Shown here: one piece after another, positions 33,619-59,657 of the stretch
How positions within the stretch are numbered: position 1 is the first letter of the stretch
How the letters are laid out: each line of letters starts with the position of its first letter
Source: a virus
Taxonomy: Duplodnaviria; Caudoviricetes
Reading direction: 5' to 3' (one strand)
Virus record (IMG/VR): IMGVR_UViG_3300017766_001347
Location: 1-63,032 of that record
DNA length: 63,032 nt
The notes under the pieces: generated by a model
Databases searched by the model: none
Told to the model about the DNA's origin: nothing
What the model saw: the letters and a program-made list of their open reading frames with translations, nothing else
Translations under genes and position numbers: made by a program

Positions 33619-33648
33619 CTCTTACGCACCAAATGAGGATTGATTGAA

Positions 33649-34281
33649 ATGAAGACTTCAAACAATATGGAAACAATCGTGAGTGACATCAAGGCAGGAA
33701 AGCCTGTGATAATCGTAGACAGTTATGATCGTGAAAACGAGGGTGATCTCATGCTTGCAGCAGAGATGGCAACTCCTGAGACATTGGCTTTCATGGCAAA
33801 GTGGGGGCGTGGGATCATGTGCCTTCCATGTATGGCAGACCGATTGGAGCGTCTGTCCGTTCCTATGATGCAGAGCAACAAACTAGACAAGTTTGTTACG
33901 CCTTTTGCGAACAGTATTGATGCATCAGAGGGCGTGTCAACGGGAGTGAGCGTGAACGACAGAATGGTTACCATTCAGAAGTTTGTCAGTGAAACCAGTG
34001 TTCCTAGCGACTTTGCACAGCCCGGTCACCTGTTTCCGCTTCGTGCCCGTCCCGGTCTACTCCAAGAGAGACAAGGACACACGGAATCTAGTGTTGAACT
34101 GTGTCTGCTAGCAGGAGTCAAGCCAGTAGCAATCATTATCGAAGTTATGAACGATGATGGTTCAATGGCACGACTCCCACAACTAGAAGAACTGGCAAAG
34201 CGTTTTCAGTTGAACATGATCTCTATTGATGAAATCATTGAGCATAAGTATGGAAAAGTCATTCAACACGCGAGCCTATAA
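33649..34281 (+). CDS. ribB: 3,4-dihydroxy-2-butanone-4-phosphate synthase
   Basis: D..DRENEGDL, G..CL, TGVS..DR, PGHLFPL, R.GHTE, DDG.MAR. Confidence 0.93.
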   Translation: MKTSNNMETIVSDIKAGKPVIIVDSYDRENEGDLMLAAEMATPETLAFMAKWGRGIMCLPCMADRLERLSVPMMQSNKLDKFVTPFANSIDASEGVSTGVSVNDRMVTIQKFVSETSVPSDFAQPGHLFPLRARPGLLQERQGHTESSVELCLLAGVKPVAIIIEVMNDDGSMARLPQLEELAKRFQLNMISIDEIIEHKYGKVIQHASL

Positions 34282-35194
34282 CAGCATAGAATTACTGCCT
34301 TTCGGTCTTGTCAGAAAAAGCAGTGCTTCTGATAGGCTATCGGATGAAGTGTTCTATTACGATTCCATCCCATCGGATGTGCTGCATCTCTTTCCTAGAA
34401 AGAAAGATTTCTACACTAAAGATGGAAAACACAACCTTGTTCTTGAGTACTACCCATATCAAAATCTTGGTCAGCACATGATGTGCAACGAAGTGTTTGA
34501 TTGGGGTTCTGTTTTTTCAAATCTAAAGAGTGCCATAGATTTGATGAGAGAGCATACAGAACACAGTGATGATTCTGAAAAATATGCTTCTTCGATGTAC
34601 ATTACCAAGACAAAAACCGAGTACGAGAACTTAAAGAAGACCTACTATGACAGTGAACTTTTTTCTTCCGAAAAACTAGTAATCAACGGCAAAGAGTACA
34701 CTAATTTTGAGGGTCTGTGGTTCAAGGTGCAATCCCTGATCGAAAAGCACCTTCTTTCCTATCGCAGAAATATGATTCACGGGGACATGTGTTTCAGCAA
34801 CATACTGTATCACCCGAAGGTTGGTGCCAGATTCATAGACATGCGAGGCTCTTTTGGTGCAAGAGGTGTTTACGGAGACACCATGTACGATTACGCAAAA
34901 CTTCTGCATTCTGTTGAGGGTGGATATGAACTATTCATCAATGACAGTTTTTCTGTGGAAAGGGAGTCGCGTGGTGTATACAATGCTTATCTGTTCTCAA
35001 ACAAGAACAAGGATCTTGCTTTTGATGCCTACATGCAAACATTTGCAGATAAAAACATTGACCTGATCCGTTTGGTTGAGGGGCTGATATTTGTTGGAAT
35101 GTGTGCCCGACACTACGATAGCGAAAAGCGTCAGATGATAATGTACTTGACAGGAATCAAAACTCTAAACGAGGCAGTGAAACAACTATGCTAA
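34250..35194 (+). CDS. APH/choline-kinase-like phosphotransferase (capsule-locus type)
   Basis: HGDMCFSNIL, IDMRG.FG, GD..YD.AKL.HS..GGY. Confidence 0.82.
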   Translation: MEKSFNTRAYNSIELLPFGLVRKSSASDRLSDEVFYYDSIPSDVLHLFPRKKDFYTKDGKHNLVLEYYPYQNLGQHMMCNEVFDWGSVFSNLKSAIDLMREHTEHSDDSEKYASSMYITKTKTEYENLKKTYYDSELFSSEKLVINGKEYTNFEGLWFKVQSLIEKHLLSYRRNMIHGDMCFSNILYHPKVGARFIDMRGSFGARGVYGDTMYDYAKLLHSVEGGYELFINDSFSVERESRGVYNAYLFSNKNKDLAFDAYMQTFADKNIDLIRLVEGLIFVGMCARHYDSEKRQMIMYLTGIKTLNEAVKQLC

Positions 35195-35970
35195 ACATTG
35201 TGGTATTGATGGCAGGCAGGGGCAGCAGATTCACGGAAAAGGGATATCGTGTTCCAAAGCCTATGGTGATGGTCAATGGAAAGACTATTCTTCAATGGAC
35301 TACTGAATCATGTCCATTCATTCGACATGACGGAAGGGGACAGAGTTCCGATGTGAACCTTTGTTTTGCCGTTCTGTTGGAGCATCTAGAGGACGGTCTT
35401 GGAGAATTTTTGAAATCAGTTTATGGAAATAACATCACCATCATTCCTTTTGAAAAGGTTACTCGCGGAAATCTAGAGACTGCTAGACTCGCTTGCGATA
35501 AGTTGCATTTTTCAAATCAGCCAATACTTTTCTTGGATTCGGACAACAAATACGATCACTGCGGTATGGATGAGTTTTTTCAGTCTCTTCCAAACGATCT
35601 TACCACAATGGCTATTTGCTGCTTTGATGATCCCAGCAAAACCCTTCCCAATAAGTGGTCAAATGCAAGAATGAAAAATGGATTGGCTGTAGAAATAAAA
35701 GAGAAAGACGATCTGTGGGTCAACTATCCCGCGCTTGTTGGAGCATTTTATTTCTCTAGGGTAGATCAGTTTAGAAACTACGCAGACTTTATCATGCATA
35801 ATGTTAATCCTGTTGGTGCTAGGGGCAAGGAAGAGTACTACATTAGTATGGTTCCAAAGCATCATGCAAACATAGGACAACCAGTTCATGTCCATATGGT
35901 GAATTCTGTTGTTCCTCTAGGAACACCGGAAGATGTGAATGTTTTTATGCAGAGAGGTAGCAACAAGTGA
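35188..35970 (+). CDS. sugar-phosphate nucleotidyltransferase
   Basis: LMAGRGSRF...GY..PKP, DSD, G.FYF, EYYIS, LGTPED. Confidence 0.88.
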   Translation: MLNIVVLMAGRGSRFTEKGYRVPKPMVMVNGKTILQWTTESCPFIRHDGRGQSSDVNLCFAVLLEHLEDGLGEFLKSVYGNNITIIPFEKVTRGNLETARLACDKLHFSNQPILFLDSDNKYDHCGMDEFFQSLPNDLTTMAICCFDDPSKTLPNKWSNARMKNGLAVEIKEKDDLWVNYPALVGAFYFSRVDQFRNYADFIMHNVNPVGARGKEEYYISMVPKHHANIGQPVHVHMVNSVVPLGTPEDVNVFMQRGSNK

Positions 35971-36347
35971 TATTCGCTTTTGATCTAGACAACACCGTAT
36001 GCGAACGGAAATTGGGTAACATGACATATTCAGATGTTCTTCCTTTTCAGGAAGCAGTGGATATCATCAGATGGTTGAAGTCCGAGGGTCATACCATCAT
36101 CCTACATACTGGCAGACACATGAGAACATGTGGAGGAAATCAGGGAAAAGTATTAGGAAAACAAGGCAAGATTTTATTTGATTGGTTGGAAAAACACCAG
36201 ATACCTTATGATGAGATATGGTGGAGCAAGCCACACGCAGACCTATTCATAGACGATGCCGTTCATCGTCACACTGATTGGAAAACCTCATTGGAAGCAA
36301 TTAAAGATCGACTTGCAAAAGGCGACAGAACAGCGGAGAATCCTTAA
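35967..36347 (+). CDS. HAD-superfamily phosphatase (capsule-locus type)
   Basis: FDLDNT, HTGR.M, WL..H.IPYDEI, KP..D.FIDD. Confidence 0.87.
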   Translation: MIFAFDLDNTVCERKLGNMTYSDVLPFQEAVDIIRWLKSEGHTIILHTGRHMRTCGGNQGKVLGKQGKILFDWLEKHQIPYDEIWWSKPHADLFIDDAVHRHTDWKTSLEAIKDRLAKGDRTAENP

Positions 36348-36349
36348 CC

Positions 36350-37219
36350 ATGAACACAGCAGAAACAGTACTTCCGGCATTTTTCTTTGACACCGCAGAC
36401 ACGCAAGCCATAAAGCGCATTTGGGACAAGTTGGGCAAGAAAGTATCATCTAAGTCCTGCTTGGGCATAACAACAAATCCAAACGCTCTAGCCAAGGTTA
36501 ACTGCCATACAGTGGCAGAACTTGAGAAGTTAGTGAAGAGCATGAGCGATACTATGGATGAAATCTGTGGTGGAGATTCGTTGATCTATGTGCAGGTTCC
36601 AAATTCCTGCATGAATCCAGCCAACATCGTTGAATGGGCAAATCTAATCTCAAAGTTCGATACTGGAAAGAGCAAGATTGCTCTGAAGATACCGCACTTC
36701 AGTTACATTCTACGAGAAACTGATCGACCTGTTTTCTGGAACACCGGACTCTTTGGTGCGTTCAAGAACCTGTATTTGAATGTCACTGGAATATCCGATA
36801 GCGGAACTATCATCAAGGCATTGAGTTATGAGAATGTCTCCTATGCCAGTATTATTCCCGGAAGAATGGAAGAGGCTGGAATTGATGCTAATGCACATCT
36901 CAAGTACCTCTGCGAACAGAAATTCAAGAAACACCAAGCAGTAATCACGGGCAGCATGAGAACTATCAAAGGTCTAAAGGATTCAGTTTACTATCGAACT
37001 GTCCCGACAATTGGAACTCGCGTGTGGGATTTGATTGAACAGGGTGATCTTTGGGAAGAGTTCCCGACATATTGGAATGAGTTGTATTCTCGTTGCGAAG
37101 GCGCAGTTCAGGACTATTGCCCCGAAACGACCCAAGACAACATTGGACTAAGCAAGCAATTCTTTGAGCAGATGGATTCTCTAGGGAATAAACTGTACGA
37201 AGATTTCATGCGCCCATAA
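36350..37219 (+). CDS. divergent transaldolase / fructose-6-phosphate aldolase family protein
   Basis: DTAD, GITTNP, Schiff-base LKIP, NVT, Y.S...GR, SMR. Confidence 0.8.
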   Translation: MNTAETVLPAFFFDTADTQAIKRIWDKLGKKVSSKSCLGITTNPNALAKVNCHTVAELEKLVKSMSDTMDEICGGDSLIYVQVPNSCMNPANIVEWANLISKFDTGKSKIALKIPHFSYILRETDRPVFWNTGLFGAFKNLYLNVTGISDSGTIIKALSYENVSYASIIPGRMEEAGIDANAHLKYLCEQKFKKHQAVITGSMRTIKGLKDSVYYRTVPTIGTRVWDLIEQGDLWEEFPTYWNELYSRCEGAVQDYCPETTQDNIGLSKQFFEQMDSLGNKLYEDFMRP

Positions 37220-37231
37220 AGGAAAGCACAC

Positions 37232-38338
37232 ATGGTCAAGAGAACTAACTGTGTGTTGTGTTCTGGACATTTGAGGTTCGTTCAGGTATTCAAGAATTTT
37301 CCTGTATACATGGGAGTTACCGACAAGAGTGAGCCTGAACTCTATCAAGATATGGAGTTTTGTTCCTGCATTAAGTGTGGTTGTGTACAACTCAGTGGGC
37401 TTGTTGATCCACAAGTTCTCTACAAGCACCCACACAATCCAGCAATAGGAAAAACATGGGAACTGCACAATCAGGCTTTGTCTGAATTTGTAATTTCAAC
37501 TGGTGCAAAGAACATTATTGACATTGGTGGAGCAAACATGAAGATAGCAAACGCCGTTTGCAAGTCTTCGTCTGTCGAATCATACACAGTCTGCGATGTG
37601 TCTGTTGGATCTTATCTGTGCGAAAGCAATCCAAAGGTAAGCACAATTCAAGATTACATTGAGAACATTGAATCAGACAAGAAATACGATACTGCTGTTT
37701 TATCACATACACTAGAACATTTCTACAATCCGGTTCAGGTTCTTTCGAAAATCAAAGATATATTGACTGCTGATGGTGTCGTAGTTGTTTCTGTTCCTAA
37801 TATAGAACAGCAGTTGAAAGATGGATTTTTGAATGCGCTGAATTTTGAACACACATACTACATCAGCCACGACTATATGAATTTCATGGTGGGTATGGCT
37901 GGACTTCAAGTTGTAGACAGACATGATTTTTCAAAACATAATTCCTTCTATCTTCTAAAAAGAACAGCCTCATCACCGGAGTTTCCCGTAGACATATCAA
38001 AAGCAAGAGTTGTATACGAGACATTCGTAAAAAATCTTCTCAAGGATGTTGCAAACATCAATTTTCAAACCATTGGGAAAAAGATGTACTGCTTTGGGGC
38101 ACACATCTTCACGCAAATGCTTATTGCTTCGGGTCTTAATACCGATTCGATAATTGGTGTTTTGGACAACGACAAGAGCAAAAACGGAAAGTTCCTTTAC
38201 GGCACCAATTTGATGGTGTACAATCCATCTTTTATAGCACAAGAAGAAGAGCCTTGCGTTGTTTTGCGGGTCGCTCAGTATAAAGATGAGATAGTGGATT
38301 CCATCAAAAATCACAACCAAGGGGTAAAAATCATTTGA
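37232..38338 (+). CDS. SAM-dependent methyltransferase (NDP-sugar C-methyltransferase-like)
   Basis: N-terminal CVLC...CIKC, IDIGG, SHTLEH, VPN, EH, C-terminal FGA...LDND..K.GK. Confidence 0.82.
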   Translation: MVKRTNCVLCSGHLRFVQVFKNFPVYMGVTDKSEPELYQDMEFCSCIKCGCVQLSGLVDPQVLYKHPHNPAIGKTWELHNQALSEFVISTGAKNIIDIGGANMKIANAVCKSSSVESYTVCDVSVGSYLCESNPKVSTIQDYIENIESDKKYDTAVLSHTLEHFYNPVQVLSKIKDILTADGVVVVSVPNIEQQLKDGFLNALNFEHTYYISHDYMNFMVGMAGLQVVDRHDFSKHNSFYLLKRTASSPEFPVDISKARVVYETFVKNLLKDVANINFQTIGKKMYCFGAHIFTQMLIASGLNTDSIIGVLDNDKSKNGKFLYGTNLMVYNPSFIAQEEEPCVVLRVAQYKDEIVDSIKNHNQGVKII

Positions 38339-38343
38339 GTAGG

Positions 38344-39099
38344 ATGAAAGTTGCTTTATGTCTACACGGACAGGCTAGGGGGCTAGGACTCCTGACCGAC
38401 TGCTCTCCTGTTTCTATAGACTATCAAAACAAAAATCTCCTAAAAAGAGATGATGTCTCGGTTGATGTTTTTTTCCATACATGGGACTATTCCAAATCTA
38501 TAAGAAATTTCAAACAGAGAATCATTGATCTATATTCTCCAAAATCTTTCATGTTTGAATCTCCTTTGGACTGGAATTTTGTTCAGCAGTTTAAGGACGG
38601 CTCGGCACCGCCAGAATATGTGTATTCGAACTACTCCCACTATCACAGTGTTTATTTTTCTGATTTGAAGAGGATAGAATACGAACAATCAACAGGACAA
38701 TGTTACGATTGGGTGATATGTACACGATTCGATGTTGCTCTGAATGTCAGATTAGATTTTGACTCTTTGGACAAGTCGAAGGTATACCAATCAGATTTTA
38801 ACATGGATCAGTACATGTCCAACGGATTGAAAGTTCAGAATCCGGTGTTTGCAGTTGGAGGAGGAGAAAACATGAAAAAGTATTCTGCAATGCTTACAAA
38901 CTTGCAACACTTGCTTGATTCGTCCCACTCTATTGATGGTCATTCGATTTTTGGTGCGAATTTGAAGTATCAAGGACTGATAGATTCTATGATGCATCTA
39001 GACATGAATCACCCATTTCCACCACGCGGAAGAGATGCTTCTCCTAATTCGTTCGTCAGAGATGATTTTCATTCATTTATGAATTTACAAAACACCTGA
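38344..39099 (+). CDS. hypothetical glycan-locus protein (GQ.R...RFD family)
   Basis: KVALCLHGQAR, DVFFHTW, YDWVI.TRFD. Confidence 0.65.
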   Translation: MKVALCLHGQARGLGLLTDCSPVSIDYQNKNLLKRDDVSVDVFFHTWDYSKSIRNFKQRIIDLYSPKSFMFESPLDWNFVQQFKDGSAPPEYVYSNYSHYHSVYFSDLKRIEYEQSTGQCYDWVICTRFDVALNVRLDFDSLDKSKVYQSDFNMDQYMSNGLKVQNPVFAVGGGENMKKYSAMLTNLQHLLDSSHSIDGHSIFGANLKYQGLIDSMMHLDMNHPFPPRGRDASPNSFVRDDFHSFMNLQNT

Positions 39100-39100
39100 C

Positions 39101-39880
39101 ATGAATAAATCAAAAATAGCCATTCTGTTTACTGGTCATTTGCGATCACTAGATCGTGCTATTCCTGATTGGAAGTCCAAGCATCCGGAGTTTTATGATG
39201 CTGATAAGACTGATGTTTTTTGCCACACATGGAGTGGAGAAAACAAAACCGGATGGGAAAATGACAATAAACCCAGAATTATGAGAAACACCCTGTACAC
39301 CATAGATGATCTCAAACAGCATATGAATGTTGTTTCCTGTGATGTAGAGGAATACGATAGCAGTCCGGTGGGAGAGTTGACCAAACAAAACAACTACATT
39401 GGAACCAATTTTTCTCAAGCATACACATCAAGACGAGTGTACGAGATGTTTGAAAAGTATTCCAATGAAACAAACACCAAGTACGATCTAGTCATAAAGA
39501 CTCGCGTTGATACATTCTTAGGGAGGTTTCCACCGCAGTTTTCTGCTTATGGTGACTCCGGTGATCCTCAGCCTCTACCAATCGAATTGTTGAAAGACAA
39601 GGTTAAGGAAAGCCCCGATAAGGTCATGGTTCCTTGGTTCAACAACTGCGATCATGGAGGCATGACGGATCAGGTGTTGATTGGCAGTAAGGGGTCGATG
39701 CAGGGAATATGCTGCCTGTATATTGAGTGGTTGCAGAAAAATGCCGGAACGATTGGGCATTGGCACATAGAGACTAATTTCAAAAAATTCACAGATCACT
39801 ACGGGTTCAATATCGAACGATTCCATTACAACTTGGGAATTCTACGCAGCATTCCGGGTTGGGATGGAGCAGTACCATAA
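39101..39880 (+). CDS. hypothetical glycan-locus protein (GH.R...RVD family)
   Basis: KIAILFTGHLR, DVFCHTW, YDLVIKTRVD. Confidence 0.65.
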   Translation: MNKSKIAILFTGHLRSLDRAIPDWKSKHPEFYDADKTDVFCHTWSGENKTGWENDNKPRIMRNTLYTIDDLKQHMNVVSCDVEEYDSSPVGELTKQNNYIGTNFSQAYTSRRVYEMFEKYSNETNTKYDLVIKTRVDTFLGRFPPQFSAYGDSGDPQPLPIELLKDKVKESPDKVMVPWFNNCDHGGMTDQVLIGSKGSMQGICCLYIEWLQKNAGTIGHWHIETNFKKFTDHYGFNIERFHYNLGILRSIPGWDGAVP

Positions 39881-39891
39881 TAGGATTTAAT

Positions 39892-40848
39892 ATGAAGATA
39901 GCCTTTCACGACAATTCTCTTTCGCTTTTTGGAACCACTCTAGCAGTTTACAATTGGGCTTATTGGGGACGAGAACTGCTCGGCGTAGAGCCGATCATAA
40001 TGTACAACGGAAACAATCGTGCAAACCATCCATCGGTTGTAGAGAAGTTCAGCAATACATTCGGCGGCAAAGTGTTTCCGTATACCGATCCTAGTCAGAT
40101 AGATGGAATACTACAAGCCAACGGCTGCACTCATTTCTTCATGGAGAAATGCGGACGGCGTGACGGAATCATTTCAACAGTCTGCAAAAATCTAGTGAAT
40201 GCTATAGCGGTATGCACACCTCAAGACATTCACGGTGATGTGTTTGCTATGGCTTCAGAATGGTTGTGCAAGACTATAGATAACCGTGTTCCGTTCGTTC
40301 CCTATATTGTTACCCTTCCTGAAGGGCACGATGATCTTCGTGAGCAGTTGGGTATTCCTGCGGACGCTTTTGTGTTTGCTCGGAACGGTGGTCTTGAGAC
40401 ATTCGACATACCTTTCGTGAAGGAAGCAATCCGAGAGGTCATTGACGAACGATCCGACATTTGGTTTGTGTTTCAATGCACGGAGAAATTCATAGATCAC
40501 GAACGGGTGATTTTCTTGCCCCCTTCCACGGATTCGGACTACAAAGTAAAGTTCATAAACACATGCGATGCCATGCTTCACGCCCGAACTGTTGGAGAAT
40601 CTTTCGGCATGGCATGCGGAGAATTTTCAATAAAGAACAAGCCTGTCATCACATGGTGGGGATCTCCCGAAAGAAGTCACATTGATATATTGGGAGAAAC
40701 GGGAATCTACTACAACACCAAGGAAGATGTTATAGATATTCTGCTGAACATCTCCAAGAGCGATGTCAGCAATCGTGATTGGAATGCTTATCGTGAATAC
40801 GAGCCGGAAAAGGTGATGAACAAGTTCAAGCAAGTCTATCTGACTTGA
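39892..40848 (+). CDS. glycosyltransferase, GT4-like (GT-B fold)
   Basis: R..LGIP, CDAMLHAR..GESFG....E....KPVIT. Confidence 0.82.
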   Translation: MKIAFHDNSLSLFGTTLAVYNWAYWGRELLGVEPIIMYNGNNRANHPSVVEKFSNTFGGKVFPYTDPSQIDGILQANGCTHFFMEKCGRRDGIISTVCKNLVNAIAVCTPQDIHGDVFAMASEWLCKTIDNRVPFVPYIVTLPEGHDDLREQLGIPADAFVFARNGGLETFDIPFVKEAIREVIDERSDIWFVFQCTEKFIDHERVIFLPPSTDSDYKVKFINTCDAMLHARTVGESFGMACGEFSIKNKPVITWWGSPERSHIDILGETGIYYNTKEDVIDILLNISKSDVSNRDWNAYREYEPEKVMNKFKQVYLT

Positions 40849-40864
40849 TCGAAACGGAGACAGC

Positions 40865-41806
40865 ATGAAAGCAATAGTGACAGGTGGAGCAGGATTTATT
40901 GGATCGAATTTGGTTGATCGTTTGTTGAGCGAAGGGCATGAAGTAATCGTCATCGACAACGAATCATCCGATGCAAACGAGCAGTTCTATTGGAATCCTG
41001 CTGCAAAGAATTACAAATACGATATATTGGATTACGAATCAACCCGTCCTCTGTATGAAGGCGTAGACTTTGTTTTCCACCTTGCTGCCGAAGCCCGCAT
41101 TCAGCCATGCATCGTGAATCCCCTCAAGGCAGTTCAAGTGAATGCCCTAGGAACCGCAACGGTGCTTCAATGTGCCAGAGAAGCAGGGGTAAAGCGGGTA
41201 ATGTATTCATCCACATCCGCTTCTTACGGATTGAAAAATATTCCTCCTCTAAAGGAAACCATGCCAACGGATTGCCTGAATCCGTATTCGGTCAGCAAAG
41301 TAAGCGGAGAAGAGTTGTGCAAGATGTACACCCGACTATATGGCTTGGAGACTGTGATTTTTCGATATTTCAATGTGTACGGTGAGCGTCAGCCTTTGAA
41401 GGGTCAATACGCTCCAGTGATTGGCATTTTCCTGCGCCAAAAGGCAGCAGGAGAACCGATGACGATTGTTGGTGACGGAAATCAGCGCAGAGACTTTACC
41501 CATGTGAGTGATGTGGTAGAGGCAAATGTTCTTGCCGCAAATTTCACTGCTCCCGATTATCAAGTGAAGGACACCGGGGGATGCAGGGTATACAACACTT
41601 GGGATTGGGGTCAAGTCTACAATATCGGAACAGGGGTCAACTACTCCGTGAACGAGATCGCAGACATGATTGGCGGTGATCGCGTCAATATTCCTCCACG
41701 GCTAGGAGAAGCAAGAATCACGCTGGCAGACAATTCCAAGGCAAAAACAGAACTGAGATGGAATTCAAAAATTCAACTAACAGATTGGATACGGGAAAAT
41801 GTATAA
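40865..41806 (+). CDS. NAD-dependent epimerase/dehydratase (UDP-glucose 4-epimerase-like)
   Basis: VTGGAGFIGSN, FHLAA, YSVSK, RYFNVYG, GDG.Q.RDFTHV.DVV. Confidence 0.92.
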   Translation: MKAIVTGGAGFIGSNLVDRLLSEGHEVIVIDNESSDANEQFYWNPAAKNYKYDILDYESTRPLYEGVDFVFHLAAEARIQPCIVNPLKAVQVNALGTATVLQCAREAGVKRVMYSSTSASYGLKNIPPLKETMPTDCLNPYSVSKVSGEELCKMYTRLYGLETVIFRYFNVYGERQPLKGQYAPVIGIFLRQKAAGEPMTIVGDGNQRRDFTHVSDVVEANVLAANFTAPDYQVKDTGGCRVYNTWDWGQVYNIGTGVNYSVNEIADMIGGDRVNIPPRLGEARITLADNSKAKTELRWNSKIQLTDWIRENV

Positions 41807-47047: not shown

Positions 47048-47463
47048 TTCTCTCTACCGTGCTTCTCGCTGCTCCCCCTGCCAACGGCAAGCCATATCCC
47101 GTTCTGCCACTTCCTGTGGAGTGCTACACCGTTGACAATCTCTTGGATGCCATGTACACTGTTGAGTCCAATCGGGGAAAGAACCTCGTTGGTGACGGCG
47201 GGAAGGCTATTGGCCCGTATCAGATTTGGCGTGAGTACTGGCAGGATGCTGTGGAACACGACCCGTCCATCGGCGGGGAGTACAAGGACTGCATGAACAA
47301 GGCGTATGCCGAAAAGATCATTCGTGCGTATTGGGCGCGATACGCACCGAAGGGTGCGACCCTTGAGCAGTTGGCGCGTATCCACAATGGTGGACCGCGT
47401 GGACACAAGCGCAGCGCGACCGTGAAGTATTGGAACAAGATTGTAAAGGAGATGACCAAGTGA
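47035..47463 (+). CDS. invertebrate (i-type)/destabilase-like lysozyme with signal peptide
   Basis: VES, GPYQI...YW.DA, ARIHNGGP.G, T..YW.K; hydrophobic N-terminus. Confidence 0.8.
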   Translation: MFGLILSTVLLAAPPANGKPYPVLPLPVECYTVDNLLDAMYTVESNRGKNLVGDGGKAIGPYQIWREYWQDAVEHDPSIGGEYKDCMNKAYAEKIIRAYWARYAPKGATLEQLARIHNGGPRGHKRSATVKYWNKIVKEMTK

Positions 47464-47852
47464 ACAAGCCATTCGGATATTCGTATTACCTTGACATGTA
47501 CCGTTGCCGCGCAGGAGCAGCGGATGACTTGGAACTGCACTACCGCTTTCTTGAGCGCGTTGTGGACAAGATCGGCATGACCCGCATGAGTCAGCCTTTC
47601 GTGATCCATGCTCCCACCCACAACGGCGTGGAGGTGTACCCCAACAAGGCAGGGGTGAGCGGTTGGGTTCCGCTTATTGAGAGCGGCATTCAGATTCATT
47701 CCATTGAACCCACCCACTTCATCACGCTTGATGTGTATTCATGCAACAAGTTTGACAAGCAGATCATTCTTGACTACGCACGGGAGTGCTTTGGATTTGA
47801 GCAGCACGAAGAGCGGTACTTTGAGCGTGGTGTGAAGTACGGAGATTGTTAA
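47460..47852 (+). CDS. speD: S-adenosylmethionine decarboxylase proenzyme-like
   Basis: G.SG...LIE|S..IH, LDVYSC..F. Confidence 0.8.
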   Translation: MNKPFGYSYYLDMYRCRAGAADDLELHYRFLERVVDKIGMTRMSQPFVIHAPTHNGVEVYPNKAGVSGWVPLIESGIQIHSIEPTHFITLDVYSCNKFDKQIILDYARECFGFEQHEERYFERGVKYGDC

Positions 47853-48775
47853 TGGATGAACTAGCCCAAGACGCTTGCCTACGCGAGTACGAAAAGAACC
47901 ACTGTTGGCAATACGACATCCGCCTCCGCAACCGGGAGGAGGATCTTAAAGCCGCAGGAATCACGGAGGAGGTCGCCAAGACCCTCCGTGTTTCTGATTT
48001 CACCTTTCGTCCCATCGTTTCCGATGCGGACAAGGCAGAAGCGGTGGAGTTCATCAAGCGTCACGAATGGCTAGGGACACTTTCCCAATACACCACCCAT
48101 TGGTTTGGTGCGTACTATCACGATCCCGATCAGGGGTTGGTGGGCAAAGACATTCTTGCGGGTGTGTGCTTGATGAATCTTCCAAACGCATTTTCAAAAT
48201 TGCTTGGCGAAGACACCAAGAAAATAGAAAGGCTCATCAGCCGTGGTGCTTGCGTGTCTTGGAGTCCAAAGAATCTTGCAAGTTCTTTTCTTATGTGGTG
48301 CTGTGGGTGGATGGTGAAGAACTCACCGTACCGCCTGTTTACCGCTTACTCCGATCCCACTGCGAAGGAGTTGGGCACAATCTACCAAGCGTGTAACTTC
48401 TACTACTTGGGCAACGACAGCGGAACCACCACACGGTACATCAATCCGTATACGGGCAAGGTGGTGAGCGACCGATTCTTCCGGGTTCGTTCCGCGTACA
48501 AAAAGTATGCCAAGGAATTGGGGATCGAATGGGAAAAGGATTGGAACAACGATCAACGCATGCTGTGGGAGAATATCCCCGACAGCGTGGAAAAGCAGTT
48601 GCGGGAACACTCCAAGAAGAAGCAGCAGGGTGCAACGAAGATCACCATGCCAAGCAAACACAAGTATGCATTCGTTTTGGGTGCCACAAAAGCCGAAACA
48701 AAAAAGTTGCGGCGTGAGTTTGAGACTCGGAACGCAGACATCATCAAGCCGTATCCTAAAGTGAGGGGAACATGA
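47852..48775 (+). CDS. Mom-like DNA modification enzyme (GNAT fold)
   Basis: A.EFI..HEW, E..ISR, AYSDP....GTIYQA.NF.YLG, KHKY. Confidence 0.72.
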   Translation: MDELAQDACLREYEKNHCWQYDIRLRNREEDLKAAGITEEVAKTLRVSDFTFRPIVSDADKAEAVEFIKRHEWLGTLSQYTTHWFGAYYHDPDQGLVGKDILAGVCLMNLPNAFSKLLGEDTKKIERLISRGACVSWSPKNLASSFLMWCCGWMVKNSPYRLFTAYSDPTAKELGTIYQACNFYYLGNDSGTTTRYINPYTGKVVSDRFFRVRSAYKKYAKELGIEWEKDWNNDQRMLWENIPDSVEKQLREHSKKKQQGATKITMPSKHKYAFVLGATKAETKKLRREFETRNADIIKPYPKVRGT

Positions 48776-49629
48776 ACACACACCGCATCATTCTTGGCGA
48801 CTGCATTACGGGCATGAAGACGCTGCCTGACGGCTGCGTTCAGACTTGCATTACATCGCCACCGTACTTCGGGCTTCGTGATTATCAAGGAGGAGAAGCC
48901 GAGATCGGTCAAGAGGACACCGTGGACGGCTATGTGCAGAAGATGACCGAAGTGTTCCGCGAGGTGCGCCGCATCCTGCGTGATGACGGTACGCTGTGGT
49001 TGAACTTGGGAGACACCTACGCAGCAAATAGAACTTATCAGGTTCGTCAGTCCGTGCAGGGAGACTACTGCACCGATGATGAACGATACGGGGGCAGGGG
49101 TAGCAAAGTTCCCGAAGGGCTTAAATCCAAGGATTTGATCGGGATTCCGTGGCGCGTAGCGTTTGCTCTGCAAGCGGACGGGTGGTATCTGCGGCAGGAC
49201 ATCATCTGGCACAAGCCAAACCCCATGCCCGAGAGCGTGGAAGACCGCTGCACGAAGACACACGAATACATTTTTTTGCTGTCCAAGAAGCCCAAGTACT
49301 ACTACGATCACGAAGCGGTCAAGGAAACCACCGTGAGTGGTGGCGAAAAGAAGAACAAGCGATCAGTATGGACGGTGAACGCCAAGGGCTACAAAGGCGC
49401 ACACTTTGCGGTGTACCCCGAGAACCTGATTGAGCCGTGTGTGCTTGCAGGATGCCCCGCAGGAGGCACGGTGTTTGATCCGTTCACAGGCAGCGGCACC
49501 ACTGCTGTGGTGGCACTGAAGAATGGGCGCAACTTTGTTGGATGCGAATTGAATCCTGAATATGTGAAACTAGCGGAAACGCGAATCCAAGAAAACATTA
49601 AACCAACTCTTGAGGAGATATTCGAATGA
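48772..49629 (+). CDS. DNA N4-cytosine/N6-adenine methyltransferase (beta class)
   Basis: TSPPY, IIW.KPNPMPES, HFA.YP, DPF.GSGTT, ELNPEY. Confidence 0.93.
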   Translation: MNTHRIILGDCITGMKTLPDGCVQTCITSPPYFGLRDYQGGEAEIGQEDTVDGYVQKMTEVFREVRRILRDDGTLWLNLGDTYAANRTYQVRQSVQGDYCTDDERYGGRGSKVPEGLKSKDLIGIPWRVAFALQADGWYLRQDIIWHKPNPMPESVEDRCTKTHEYIFLLSKKPKYYYDHEAVKETTVSGGEKKNKRSVWTVNAKGYKGAHFAVYPENLIEPCVLAGCPAGGTVFDPFTGSGTTAVVALKNGRNFVGCELNPEYVKLAETRIQENIKPTLEEIFE

Positions 49630-57986: not shown

Positions 57987-59657
57987 ATGGAAGATTTCAA
58001 GCGTTTTTCATTGCCCAAAGCCGAAAAATCGGCTCCTAAACCCCTCCCGTTTTCGGAGGGGCGGTACGGTTTTGGGGCAAACTTTACACTTACGCACAGA
58101 ATCAAAGGCACCGATTACCGTATCGGTGACACTTTCACCTACATTTCCGAAACAGATTCCCGTCACCGTGATCCTTATATTCTGAAAATCGGGGACGGAA
58201 TAGGGGAAACATGTTTCATTGATCCCAAGGGCAGGGCAGTGATACTGTCGGCGGATGTTGGTGTAGTAAACACTATATTTGAATATAAAGAACTGCCCCC
58301 CAAAACAGTGGTGCTATCGGAGGTAGATGAGTATACTCCTCCCCAATCCCCTGTATTCATTACAGAAAACCAATTCACAGAATTCCGAAAGGGGCTGGCT
58401 ACAGTTCTTACGGAGATTGCCTCCATCGTTCCAGAAAAGGGCGACCGTGGTGATCGTGGAGATCGCGGCGAAAAAGGTGATCCGGGCGAACCCGGAGCGC
58501 AGGGGCTTCCCGGTGAACCCGGAGTCCCCGGCATTCAGGGTGAAAAAGGCGAAAAAGGAGAACCCGGAGAACGGGGAGAAAAAGGAGAAAAAGGTGATAC
58601 AGGAAACAAAGGCGAAACTGGAGAACGCGGTACTAAAGGCGAAAAGGGTGATCGTGGAGAAGTGGGCCCTCGCGGTGAACGCGGTGAAAAGGGTGCTGAC
58701 GGTAATCCGGGACGCGATGGTGCAGACGGTAAACCGGGTAAAGACGGTCGTGACGGGAAGCCCGGTGCAAAAGGCGCAAAAGGCGCAAAAGGTGAAAAGG
58801 GTGAAAAAGGTGATCGGGGCGAAACAGGCAAGCCGGGTGAAAAAGGTGAGAAAGGTGACCAAGGGCTAAAAGGAGAAAAGGGAGATAGAGGAGAAAAAGG
58901 TGACACGGGACTACTGACCGCCAAGTTCCCGCTTGTATACGATCCTAAAGAAAAGTCTGTTGGGATTGACGAAGCGCGTCTTGATAAGATTCTGAAAAAG
59001 ATTCTTGGCGGTGGCAAGGTGTCTGCTGCGGATATGGGATGGCTTGCCTCCACTGGCGGTGGCGGCAAGGTGGCTGTGTATGTGAACGGCGCAAAGATTA
59101 CGCCTGATGTTCGTACATTAGATTTCACGGGCGCAGGAGTCACCGCTAGCAAGGTTGGCGGAAAAGTTACTATTAACTTTACAAGCACGGGTGGTAGTGG
59201 TGGCGGAACCAACTTTTACTATCAGCAAGACGCGCCAACACTGGGAGTCACGATTGGTTCCCGTTGGATGGATTCCGACAACGGGCAAGAGTATGTGTAT
59301 GTGAATGACGGAAACAGCGACCATTGGGTGCAGCCCACCGTGAATCCTTTCTTTGGCCCTGTGACATACGCCACCGCAACCGTAACTGGTGCGACATACG
59401 AAGCCACCGCGCAGGACTACTATATTGGCGTGAGTTACGCGGGAACCCCCACATTGTATCTGCCTTCTGCTCCGGGAACAGGCAGAGAAGTAGTAGTAAA
59501 AGACGAATCAGGAAACGCAGGAGCAGCGAATCGGTACATTACCGTGCGTGGTGCAAGCGGTTCAATCGACACCATAGACAATCAGGCTTCTGCGGTAATC
59601 AACCTAAATAATGCAGGTGTTCACTTCATTTACAGAGGCGGATGGAGAATCATATGA
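57987..59657 (+). CDS. collagen triple-helix repeat virion protein
   Basis: Long Gly-X-Y tract; C-terminal fibre-like domain; CTACATA 5 nt before ATG. Confidence 0.85.
58440..58910 (+). repeat. collagen Gly-X-Y repeat (52 uninterrupted triplets)
   Basis: [14 protein letters not shown] 9-nt periodicity. Confidence 0.92.

Follow-up and report, generated by a model that had tools for sequence, protein, structure and literature searches.

A conserved phage cassette that pairs RibB with a transaldolase-like enzyme may make a nucleotide-activated sugar

A RibB-containing cassette within a phage glycan island

What is a gene for RibB, the synthase of 3,4-dihydroxy-2-butanone-4-phosphate (DHBP), doing among the glycan genes of a phage? 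The gene lies in a 63,032-nt stretch of DNA (the window) from a T4-like freshwater phage, representing about 35% of the phage genome as estimated by CheckV. A sequence-only reading had described five tightly linked genes inside a glycan island and had proposed that they give RibB a role outside riboflavin synthesis, in a route to a branched ketose nucleotide sugar. All five were confirmed at 33649-37219, on one strand:

33649..34281, plus strand: RibB, 3,4-dihydroxy-2-butanone-4-phosphate synthase (PF00926, E 3.8e-72)
34226..35194, plus strand: small-molecule kinase of the APH/choline-kinase (protein-kinase-like) fold (HGDxxxxN loop)
35188..35970, plus strand: sugar-phosphate nucleotidyltransferase, NT (profile match to PDB 4evw)
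35967..36347, plus strand: capless HAD phosphatase of the EcbF/BcbF kind (TIGR01689, E 8.7e-18)
36350..37219, plus strand: divergent transaldolase/FSA-fold class I aldolase-like enzyme (Foldseek, AF2 model and invariant residues)

The genes are co-directional, and their junctions are overlaps of 4-56 nt or a 2-nt gap. They sit in a region of low GC (0.40-0.43 across 28-40 kb versus 0.45-0.54 in the rest of the window), which also encodes GT2, GT47-like, DXD-GT, GT25, GT10 fucosyltransferase and GT-B proteins, SDR epimerases/dehydratases and a C-methyltransferase. The same glycan setting was seen in eight other loci, that is, everywhere examined. We somewhat favour the view that the five genes constitute one virus-specific cassette, which would convert ribulose-5-phosphate into a nucleotide-activated, DHBP-derived sugar for the island glycosyltransferases; the more general claim, that the cassette yields an NDP-activated DHBP-derived sugar and not riboflavin, is probable. 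If this is true, phages make a previously undescribed activated sugar for glycan rather than a vitamin. We found no report of such a cassette in the literature searched.

The five genes are inherited together

To examine the linkage of these genes, loci were collected from two directions. With the aldolase profile we recovered 36 loci: one in the cultured Synechococcus phage S-SKS1, one on a MAG contig and the rest on 34 IMG/VR contigs. In these, tblastn (E<=1e-4) found RibB and the kinase in 36/36 each, the HAD protein in 35/36 and the NT in 33/36. When a RibB profile was used instead, with peptide patterns from cassette RibBs and therefore a bias towards them, 51 IMG/VR contigs were recovered, of which 49 carried the aldolase, 49 the kinase, 46 the HAD protein and 45 the NT. 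As for the two misses, one locus (L086) ends at a contig edge, while the other (L089) has a 41%-identical RibB without the cassette. Across loci the cassette genes keep a single strand and a single order. The cassette is shared by dozens of contigs whose proteins are 32-86% identical (the range seen for the aldolase), which puts the linkage far beyond chance. Many loci are near-duplicates (e.g. L002/L003, L010/L011 and L021/L022/L035), and the number of independent lineages is accordingly smaller than that of loci.

In addition, neighbouring genes are fused in some phages. NT and RibB form one ORF of 449-491 aa in 12/36 loci, including S-SKS1 (SWZG_00042), and NT and HAD form one ORF in L017 and L037. 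The aldolase clade and RibB are locked together, RibB in these cassettes always being paired with the unusual transaldolase-like enzyme. This conserved neighbourhood, seen from both directions, together with the NT-RibB fusions, supports the proposal of a non-riboflavin role for RibB; the sequence-only interpretation as a whole is partly supported.

RibB looks canonical but probably lies outside a riboflavin pathway

The RibB ORF (33640-34281) opens at TTG 33640, and the likely start is ATG 33649, which lies 9 nt after GAGGA. The protein is a full-length family match that scores 209 bits against TIGR00506, exceeding the cut-off of 177. A 24-sequence alignment including Salmonella RibB, whose numbering is used here, shows no variation at D33, R37, E38, E40, D42, C67, H136, R150, H153, T154, E155 and E174; overall, cassette RibBs are only 33-43% identical to the Salmonella protein. 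The phage RibB is canonical-looking, with its catalytic residues intact, and is predicted to be active.

This low identity would leave some room for a changed RibB reaction, in which a diketo or branched intermediate is released or another ketose phosphate is used, so that the sugar would not derive from DHBP. So would the RuBisCO-like protein that adjoins the cassette in some contigs, as RuBisCO-like enzymes have diketo and branched sugar phosphates for substrates. However, the catalytic and metal-binding positions are all invariant and the equivalog score is above its cut-off, making a changed reaction improbable.

Canonical RibB enzymes serve riboflavin synthesis, and the Salmonella ribB used in our comparison has an annotated FMN riboswitch. 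In the window, as the sequence-only reading had noted, we detected no FMN riboswitch (there were zero Rfam matches of any kind) and no other rib genes among the ORFs scanned. Because the window represents only part of the genome, more complete relatives were also checked. A scan for RibA, RibH and RibE (PF00925, PF00885 and PF00677) found none of them in S-SKS1 (208 kb) or in three relatives, G001 (100% complete), G002 (90%) and G003 (67%); it recovered its controls in 10-14 of the 14 genomes. Thus ribA, ribH and ribE, which if present elsewhere without conserved linkage would speak for riboflavin synthesis, are missing from S-SKS1 and from two records that are at least 90% complete. Unlike RibB of the riboflavin pathway, the phage protein lacks RibA, RibD-C, RibH and RibE partners, and in many phages it is fused to a nucleotidyltransferase. 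These data support the placement of the cassette RibB outside any riboflavin pathway.

The kinase, HAD and NT genes form a probable sugar-activation module also found in bacteria

The window's own kinase (P0202) is called in the database from ATG 34250, with a length of 314 aa. H185, D187, N192 and D205 are invariant, the HGDxxxxN loop is present, and 14/19 relatives match PF01636 (APH) at E<=1 (best 7.4e-5). An AF2 model (pLDDT 90.5) has APH(3'), FN3K, NahK and LicA as its top Foldseek matches. For the NT, in which G10, G12, R14 and K24 are invariant, the best profile match is PDB 4evw, an 'NDP-sugar pyrophosphorylase' (E 1.8e-25), followed by GlmU, HddC-like proteins, ManC and RmlA. The NT also matches phrog_3980, the profile of the NT-RibB fusion (2.3e-27), matches the MobA/IspD-type NTP_transf_3 family weakly in its N-terminal part, and has MurU among its weak NCBIfam matches. 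The HAD protein, with a DLDNT motif visible in its translation, scores 64.5 bits against TIGR01689 (EcbF-BcbF), below the cut-off of 162, and matches PDB 1xpj (E 2e-15) and 9iqw, a 'capsule biosynthesis protein' (1.6e-5).

Homologues of all three lie side by side in five plasmid capsule/LPS loci, from Legionella, Citrobacter, Caballeronia, Aeromonas and Phaeobacter, supporting in general form the likeness to capsule-locus sets that the sequence-only reading had proposed. That reading had put such sets in fructose-branched capsule loci of Pasteurella and E. coli K4, a putative link. The Legionella plasmid proteins are 31% (kinase, E 2e-37), 46% (HAD, E 8e-30) and 22% (NT) identical to those of the phage. 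In bacteria this module of HAD (EcbF/BcbF, TIGR01689), APH-like kinase and NT is often found beside WavE-family genes, and its kinase often has an N-terminal NT-like domain. RibB and the aldolase are absent from all five plasmid loci, and the phage HAD, as noted, falls below the TIGR01689 cut-off. In bacteria, then, the kinase-HAD-NT trio stands on its own, and the phage cassette can be read as this activation module joined to a front end of two enzymes, RibB and the aldolase, that would supply its substrate.

The proposed logic resembles that of the ADP-/GDP-heptose pathway, which uses GmhA, the kinase HldE or HddA, the HAD phosphatase GmhB and the nucleotidyltransferase HldE or HddC. In both, a ketose-derived sugar phosphate would receive a second phosphate, lose the distal one to a small HAD phosphatase and be nucleotidylated, and HddC-like proteins are among the PDB matches of the cassette NT. 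On the other hand, the cassette kinase is APH/protein-kinase-like rather than of the ribokinase or GHMP fold, its substrate would come from RibB and the transaldolase-like enzyme rather than being taken from sedoheptulose-7-P, and the cassette lacks a SIS isomerase; we count the lack of any isomerase in the cassette against our reading, as we do the want of a confirmed precedent for an NDP-2-ketose reached through kinase, phosphatase and NT. A second parallel is with NahK and AmgK/MurU, salvage pairs of anomeric kinase and nucleotidyltransferase that act on free, common amino sugars. In these pairs, too, the NT comes after an APH-fold sugar kinase, and NahK is itself a Foldseek match of the cassette kinase, but the salvage pairs can do without a phosphatase and without enzymes that build the sugar.

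The fusion of NT to RibB could equally reflect an NT that acts on DHBP directly, and to that extent counts against the cassette reading. The NT would then join DHBP and NTP into NDP-3,4-dihydroxy-2-butanone, from which a phospho-butanone unit would be moved to glycan, while the kinase, HAD and aldolase would belong to a different step or a different sugar. The phosphate precursors of CDP-glycerol, CDP-ribitol and CDP-ME are activated in this way, and the weak MobA/IspD-type matches point the same way as the shared polypeptide. The NT profile, however, best fits sugar-1-phosphate nucleotidyltransferases, and this explanation does not account for the kinase, HAD and aldolase, which are strictly co-inherited. 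Furthermore, fused enzymes need not catalyse consecutive steps, HldE being an example. Direct activation of DHBP is therefore unlikely.

A divergent transaldolase-like enzyme retains a Schiff-base lysine

The window's own aldolase falls below every Pfam threshold, which counts against our reading, and it is likewise missed by PDB sequence profiles. Among its relatives, 21/24 match PF00923 at E<=1 (best 1.7e-6). The AF2 model (pLDDT 87.9) has transaldolases as its top Foldseek matches (E 3.6e-10, probability 1.00), and hhalign aligns the cassette aldolase with the TalC of S-SKS1 at a probability of 89% (E 2.2e-6). D14, N43, K113, N144, T146, S167, R172, S202 and R204 are invariant, so that the enzyme keeps the Schiff-base lysine (Lys113), the Asp, the TTNP Asn, the NVT motif, Asn144/Ser167 and a distal phosphate site (Arg172/Ser202/Arg204). 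It differs from the TalC/PF00923 family in being about 60 residues longer and in always occurring in the cassette, never alone. It also lacks the usual acid/base residues: where TAL is marked by Glu and Phe, and FSA by Gln and Tyr, it has Gln82 and Ile169, the former placed by strand register in a segment left unaligned by hhalign. This pair appears to speak against the proposed chemistry, and we know of transaldolase-family enzymes with aldehyde acceptors but of none with ketone acceptors, a further point against it.

Judged by its residues, the enzyme would suit a dihydroxyacetone-type donor, whose C1 hydroxyl is presumably held by Asn144 and Ser167, as in TalB and FSA work, and a product whose phosphate is as distant as in fructose-6-P. 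The conserved residues are thus consistent with, and no proof of, the proposed addition to DHBP. Alternatively, DHBP might itself be the aldol donor, its C2 ketone forming the Schiff base with Lys113 and its C3 attacking an aldehyde, to give a 1-deoxy-3-C-(phosphooxymethyl) branched ketose that the trio would then activate. An FSA-like Gln in place of Glu, as suggested by the strand register, would fit this scheme, since FSA-type enzymes take 1-deoxy donors such as hydroxyacetone. Yet Asn144 and Ser167 are invariant at positions that we take to bind the C1 hydroxyl in transaldolases, where FSA has Leu/Ala, and the distal phosphate site, at fructose-6-P spacing, would lie beyond the C4 phosphate of bound DHBP. 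DHBP as donor is accordingly a rather unlikely arrangement, slightly more so than direct activation.

Finally, RibB and the aldolase might be ordinary AMGs and chance neighbours, RibB lifting host riboflavin synthesis and the aldolase acting as a pentose-phosphate transaldolase like cyanophage TalC. RibB does look fully canonical, and talC is common in cyanophages. But S-SKS1 carries its ordinary talC (SWZG_00025) in addition to the divergent aldolase, which is therefore an extra enzyme, and a search of 1.84 billion proteins with the aldolase profile yields only 167 representatives, canonical transaldolases being out of its reach. When the co-inheritance with kinase, HAD and NT, the gene fusions, the lack of other rib genes in complete relatives and the constant glycan-island setting are also considered, this is the least credible of the explanations and very improbable.

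A proposed route to an activated branched ketose

In the cassette pathway that we favour, RibB would first make L-3,4-dihydroxy-2-butanone-4-phosphate and formate. The transaldolase-like enzyme would carry a dihydroxyacetone unit on Lys113, taken from fructose-6-P, sedoheptulose-7-P or free DHA, and would add it to DHBP to give a seven-carbon branched ketose phosphate, 4-C-methyl-hexulose-6-P. Following heptose-pathway logic, the kinase would then add a second phosphate and the HAD phosphatase take off the distal one, before the NT and NTP turned the sugar phosphate into an NDP-sugar, the order and regiochemistry of these steps being our best guess. In the scheme proposed for the branched hexulose, the dihydroxyacetone unit would add to the ketone of DHBP, phosphorylation would fall at C2 and dephosphorylation at C6. 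The sugar might then be placed onto a phage- or host-borne glycan by a linked GT-B or by some other transferase of the island. The specific product, a 4-C-methyl-ketose, fits the conserved residues and is put forward tentatively, as one possibility.

Neighbouring genes include a candidate transferase

Downstream of the cassette lie the following genes:

37232..38338, plus strand: TylC3-type sugar C-methyltransferase (Methyltransf_23, 8.5e-10; C-terminal Methyltransf_14 domain, 1.3e-6)
38335-39099 and 39101-39880, plus strand: two phrog_13607 paralogues, DUF7796-like (1.3e-11 and 4.5e-12)
39859..40848, plus strand: GT-B glycosyltransferase (7/10 relatives match PF00534, best 1.1e-10; PDB B736L, 9.5e-4)
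40865..41806, plus strand: GalE-like SDR epimerase/dehydratase (PF01370, 2.9e-59), adjoining the GT-B gene

The C-methyltransferase, directly 3' of the cassette, has relatives in 9/36 loci and is a neighbour outside the cassette core. The phrog_13607 paralogues, for which the Atlas provided the DUF7796 lead, are frequent neighbours (relatives in 22/36 loci by tblastn). The GT-B protein is 59% identical to SWZG_00038, which comes directly after the aldolase in S-SKS1, and it is present in 12/36 aldolase-found and 18/51 RibB-found loci; being often cassette-linked, it is a candidate transferase for the cassette product. The GalE-like SDR is 62% identical to SWZG_00037, and the order aldolase-GT-SDR is common to S-SKS1, L005, L020 and L030; its membership of the cassette is uncertain. 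The RuBisCO-like protein stands beside the cassette in 8/51 contigs.

A conserved viral cassette couples RibB to a transaldolase-like protein

The genes called at 33649-37219 by the sequence-only reading proved right: five plus-strand genes whose ends overlap or abut.

33649..34281, + strand, RibB
34226..35194, + strand, predicted small-molecule kinase
35188..35970, + strand, predicted sugar-phosphate nucleotidyltransferase (NT)
35967..36347, + strand, HAD phosphatase
36350..37219, + strand, transaldolase-like protein (aldolase)

Together they form a real, strongly conserved and virus-specific gene set, in which RibB and a re-tooled transaldolase have probably been recruited into nucleotide-sugar synthesis. 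The proposal of a non-riboflavin role for RibB had been tied to a neighbourhood check of ribB against this aldolase clade, and the association held from either side. In the 36 loci found through the aldolase (34 IMG/VR contigs, Synechococcus phage S-SKS1 and one contig of a Saprospiraceae MAG), tblastn at E<=1e-4 recovered both RibB and the kinase in all 36, HAD in 35 and NT in 33, with the cassette genes on the same strand and in the order RibB-kinase-NT-HAD-aldolase or NT-RibB-kinase-HAD-aldolase. A RibB profile, with scan patterns derived from the cassette RibBs, found 51 IMG/VR contigs, all 34 aldolase contigs among them; the aldolase was present in 49 of these, the kinase in 49, HAD in 46 and NT in 45, several of the compared loci being near-duplicates. 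One of the two exceptions lies at a contig edge, and the other, a RibB of 41% identity, lacks the cassette. Set beside these counts, a reading of RibB and the aldolase as two unrelated auxiliary metabolic genes (AMGs) explains the whole cassette less well.

Members of the cassette are also found fused. NT and RibB share one ORF of 449-491 aa in 12/36 loci, including SWZG_00042 of S-SKS1, and PHROG 3980 is an NT-RibB profile; NT and HAD form one ORF in two loci. The NT-RibB fusion suggests that L-3,4-dihydroxy-2-butanone-4-phosphate (DHBP), the RibB product, might be nucleotidylated directly, a route that accounts less well for the cassette as a whole.

When the aldolase profile was searched against 185,579 prokaryote species genomes, the only locus found was on the Saprospiraceae MAG contig, which carries this cassette, so that no bacterium of known glycan structure is linked to it. 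This 7-kb contig (L006) looks more viral than bacterial. Its NT and aldolase (L006:2013-4056) are both broken into two ORFs, indicating frameshifts or assembly errors. The portions of the literature covered by our search yielded no description of the cassette or of a non-riboflavin role for RibB.

RibB retains its catalytic positions outside a riboflavin context

By sequence, the window RibB can be assigned unambiguously to the DHBP synthase family. It matched PF00926 over its full length (E 3.8e-72, 242 bits, cut-off 26.4) and scored 209 bits with TIGR00506, over the cut-off of 177.45. The acidic loop RENEGD, Cys67, His136, His153-Thr-Glu and Glu174, which we take to be the catalytic and metal-binding positions of RibB, were invariant in a 24-sequence alignment that included Salmonella RibB. 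RibB converts ribulose-5-phosphate (Ru5P) to DHBP and formate, and the cassette enzyme would likewise make DHBP; an altered reaction catalysed by this RibB homologue is a rival reading that explains the whole cassette less well.

Further rib genes in the phage had been named in advance as the sign that would speak against a non-riboflavin role. Four records were searched for RibA (PF00925), RibH (PF00885) and RibE (PF00677): the whole genome of S-SKS1, a 217-kb record bearing terminal repeats (100% complete), and two further ones of 159 kb (90%) and 131 kb (67%). Each gene was found in 0/4, the controls of this search being recovered in 10-14 of 14 reference genomes, and all three were absent from the window ORFs scanned. 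The window gave no Rfam match of any kind, and so none to an FMN riboswitch; in Salmonella, the ribB taken for comparison is annotated with one. Judged by its gene content, the cassette does not resemble a riboflavin operon or a vitamin AMG.

A divergent transaldolase with altered catalytic residues

The 289-aa aldolase has no Pfam match of its own, and none to PF00923 at E<=1. Among its relatives, 21/24 matched PF00923 at E<=1 (best 1.7e-6), with the gathering score not reached (24.3 bits for the L006 fragment against a cut-off of 27). An AlphaFold 2 model (pLDDT 87.9) gave top Foldseek matches that were all transaldolases (E 3.6e-10, TM ~0.75 by target length), and hhalign aligned the protein to the ordinary TalC of S-SKS1 with a probability of 89% (E 2.2e-6). 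Single-sequence and profile searches of the PDB gave no match, the family being shown by fold search and hhalign only. As modelled, the protein has the TIM-barrel fold of transaldolases.

Residues D14, K113, R172, S202 and R204 are invariant, and hhalign places them on the motifs of S-SKS1 TalC. The protein keeps Asp14, Asn43 (TTNP), the Schiff-base Lys113, Asn144/Thr146, Ser167 and the distal phosphate site Arg172/Ser202/Arg204. Transaldolases are defined by a catalytic Glu together with Phe, and fructose-6-phosphate (F6P) aldolases by Gln together with Tyr. Here, Ile169 is aligned with the TalC Phe and Gln82 ends strand 78-82 (register inferred), so that the aligned sequence appears to fit neither canonical pattern. 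With Gln82 and Ile169 at the defining positions, the catalytic apparatus is altered; this is compatible with a new acceptor, the chemistry itself not being readable from sequence.

The aldolase family is small and viral. There were 524 homologues in a set of 5.8 billion proteins, nearly all of them unnamed, and among 1.84 billion the profile reached 167 representatives at E<=1e-3, with canonical transaldolases beyond its reach. S-SKS1 carries an ordinary talC elsewhere in its genome, so the divergent aldolase is there in addition to a normal one.

A kinase, HAD and NT trio shared with bacterial capsule and LPS loci

The 322-aa protein is a predicted protein-kinase-like small-molecule kinase of the APH/choline-kinase fold. 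Residues H185, D187 and N192 of the HxDxxxxN loop and the metal-binding D205 are invariant, and 14/19 relatives matched Pfam APH at E<=1, weakly. The top Foldseek matches of its AlphaFold 2 model (pLDDT 90.5) were APH(3'), fructosamine-3-kinase (FN3K), N-acetylhexosamine 1-kinase (NahK) and the choline kinase LicA, with a probability of 1.00 against APH, FN3K and NahK; single-sequence and profile searches of the PDB returned chance-level matches only. The 260-aa protein is, on profile evidence, a predicted nucleotidyltransferase, matching PDB 4evw (‘NDP-sugar pyrophosphorylase’) at E 1.8e-25, far ahead of GlmU, HddC-like, ManC and RmlA entries. In the capless, 126-aa HAD phosphatase, the DxDxT motif is intact as DLDNT at residues 6-10. 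This protein matched PDB 1xpj (126 aa) at E 2e-15, and lay nearest to TIGR01689 EcbF-BcbF (E 8.7e-18, 64.5 bits, below the cut-off of 162), which points to a homologue of that family, not a called member. The label ‘phosphoheptose isomerase’ that the cassette HAD carries in S-SKS1 (SWZG_00040, L005 36761-37117) and in PHROGs (phrog_1238) looks like a propagated misannotation.

The sequence-only reading had pointed to similar kinase, HAD and nucleotidyltransferase sets in capsule loci, and in general form this likeness holds. Through tblastn of HAD and NT against PLSDB plasmids, we reached five plasmid loci in which homologues of all three genes stand side by side within capsule or LPS loci, in Legionella sainthelensi, Citrobacter, Caballeronia, Aeromonas and Phaeobacter (Legionella kinase E 2e-37, HAD 8e-30). 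In four of the five, the kinase has an extra N-terminal, weakly NT-like domain, and WavE-family genes adjoin the trio in three; RibB and the aldolase were found in none of the five. With the fructose genes of E. coli K4 kfo and Pasteurella bcbE/F/G, the TIGR01689 name is the sole connection of the phage cassette. In the parts of the sources consulted, KfoE and HS1.08 are named as fructose transferases and a kinase/HAD/NT route is not described (PMC8858990, PMC11924219, PMC7901785).

The Rhizobium rosettiformans plasmid p1 (L092, 156995-159114) has an NT-NT fusion that resembles the phage NT, and close to it lie split transketolase/DXS-like genes and a gene for a RuBisCO-large-subunit-like protein, a further RuBisCO-like protein (RLP) in the vicinity of a related nucleotidyltransferase.

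As in heptose-type NDP-sugar activation, a predicted kinase, HAD phosphatase and NT are encoded together in the phage cassette too. The kind of system, a sugar-phosphate activation module, is already known; its front end and predicted product are new in the literature searched.

A possible route to a branched ketose

By analogy with TalB and FSA, the Asn144/Ser167 pair would contact the C1 hydroxyl of a bound dihydroxyacetone unit. FSA has Leu/Ala at the Asn/Ser positions and tolerates 1-deoxy donors. By the same analogy, the Arg/Ser site of the aldolase would hold a phosphate at the distance found in fructose-6-phosphate. Taken together, these patterns favour a dihydroxyacetone-type donor and an acceptor phosphate with a three-carbon backbone. 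Within the cassette, the only sensible acceptor suggested by the gene content would be DHBP, the methyl-ketone analogue of L-glyceraldehyde-3-phosphate. DHBP might instead act as the aldol donor, a reading that explains the whole cassette less well. With DHBP as acceptor, the aldolase product would be 4-C-methyl-hexulose-6-phosphate, which the trio, by the logic of the heptose pathway, would convert to an NDP-sugar. The best candidate transferase for this product would be the GT-B protein (39859-40848); its gene directly follows the aldolase in S-SKS1 and in two further loci (L020 and L030), and the window copy is 59% identical to that of S-SKS1.

We offer only as a tentative and still doubtful possibility that aquatic tailed phages encode a self-contained pathway to a monosaccharide not known from cellular metabolism, in which a rare aldol addition to the ketone of DHBP gives a 4-C-methyl branched ketohexose phosphate, without SAM-dependent C-methylation, and the capsule-type trio then makes from it an NDP-ketose for glycans of the virion or host surface. 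If true, RibB would for the first time be seen in a role outside riboflavin synthesis, branched-chain sugars would gain a new route, and nucleotide-activated ketoses a new class. In viromes, RibB is usually taken for a vitamin gene, and the transaldolases of phages for boosters of the pentose-phosphate pathway; as both belong here to one conserved, presumably glycan-building cassette, such annotations would be wrong across the clade. Confirmation of the product would add a new monosaccharide, with branched sugars formed through a class I aldolase C-C bond on a ketone; it would give a function to the uncharacterised bacterial capsule/LPS trio of HAD, APH-like kinase and NT, and experiments could begin on the large, so far unexplained glycan islands that T4-like aquatic phages carry. 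Since the cassette occurs in a cultured pair, S-SKS1 and Synechococcus WH7803, the question is directly testable.

The glycan island and its phage

The 63-kb window record is 35% complete by CheckV estimate. It carries the genes of a T4-like myovirus (neck, sheath, tube, portal, prohead protease, scaffold and gp23, the last at ~55% identity with gp23 of Synechococcus myoviruses) and also encodes UvsY, UvsW, gp46/47-like proteins, RNase H, gp45, gp44/62, RegA, DNA polymerase B, UvsX and a gp41-like protein. The cassette lies in a block of sugar genes.

Sugar-gene block of the window: ~20 kb, between regA and a dUTPase-like gene
Transferases of the island: GT2, GT47-like, DXD-type, GT25, GT10 (fucosyltransferase), GT-B
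Modifying enzymes of the island: SDR epimerases/dehydratases, TylC3-type C-methyltransferase

GC content at 28-40 kb is 0.40-0.43, against 0.45-0.54 elsewhere in the window. Searched at the DNA level, the region matched none of 50,697 phage records; freshwater metagenomes contain DNA near-identical to the window. Three freshwater metatranscriptome libraries, each from a different study, have contigs that contain sequence words of the cassette, and one RNA-library contig equals 35675-36872 with zero differences, reaching from the end of NT through HAD to about the middle of the aldolase. As these are contigs to which DNA carry-over may have contributed, they do not serve as proof of transcription. 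Between 26000 and 45500, a promoter and terminator scan found 37 and 15 sites where 39.6 and 15.4 were expected, which is no excess.

Directly after the cassette, at 37232-38338, lies a TylC3-type sugar C-methyltransferase with N-terminal Cys pairs and a C-terminal Methyltransf_14 domain, 32% identical to its S-SKS1 homologue SWZG_00045; from its presence, a second branched sugar, this one SAM-methylated, may be produced by the island. Next, at 38335-39880, come two paralogues in tandem from an uncharacterised, DUF7796-like viral family (phrog_13607), which occur in 22/36 loci; a relation to a WavE protein was not detected by hhalign (probability 0.1%).

Other loci carry further neighbours. 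A 409-aa RuBisCO-large-chain-like protein (L008:11958-13187, PF00016 E 6.9e-33), absent from the window, recurs in L009-L013, L031/L071 and L085, in all in 8/51 IMG/VR contigs, within ~1-1.5 kb of the cassette. These proteins fall into two groups with only 50-54% identity between them, and the neighbour is a form-IV-type RLP beside a cassette predicted to consume Ru5P. An APS kinase gene (L019:13653-14396) lies among the glycan-island genes of a phage record of 159 kb, and sulfotransferase-bearing relatives are listed in the Atlas; together these hint at sulfated phage glycans.

Elsewhere in the window, the 556-aa protein encoded at 57987-59657 has collagen triple-helix repeats (PF01391 7.6e-29); it probably serves as a fibre or decoration protein, and a role as glycosylation target is conceivable. 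Finally, three genes in a row at 47430-49629 may form a DNA-modification module: one is AdoMet-decarboxylase-like, one encodes a Mom-family protein (PF25680 2.1e-12) and one an N6/N4 DNA methylase.
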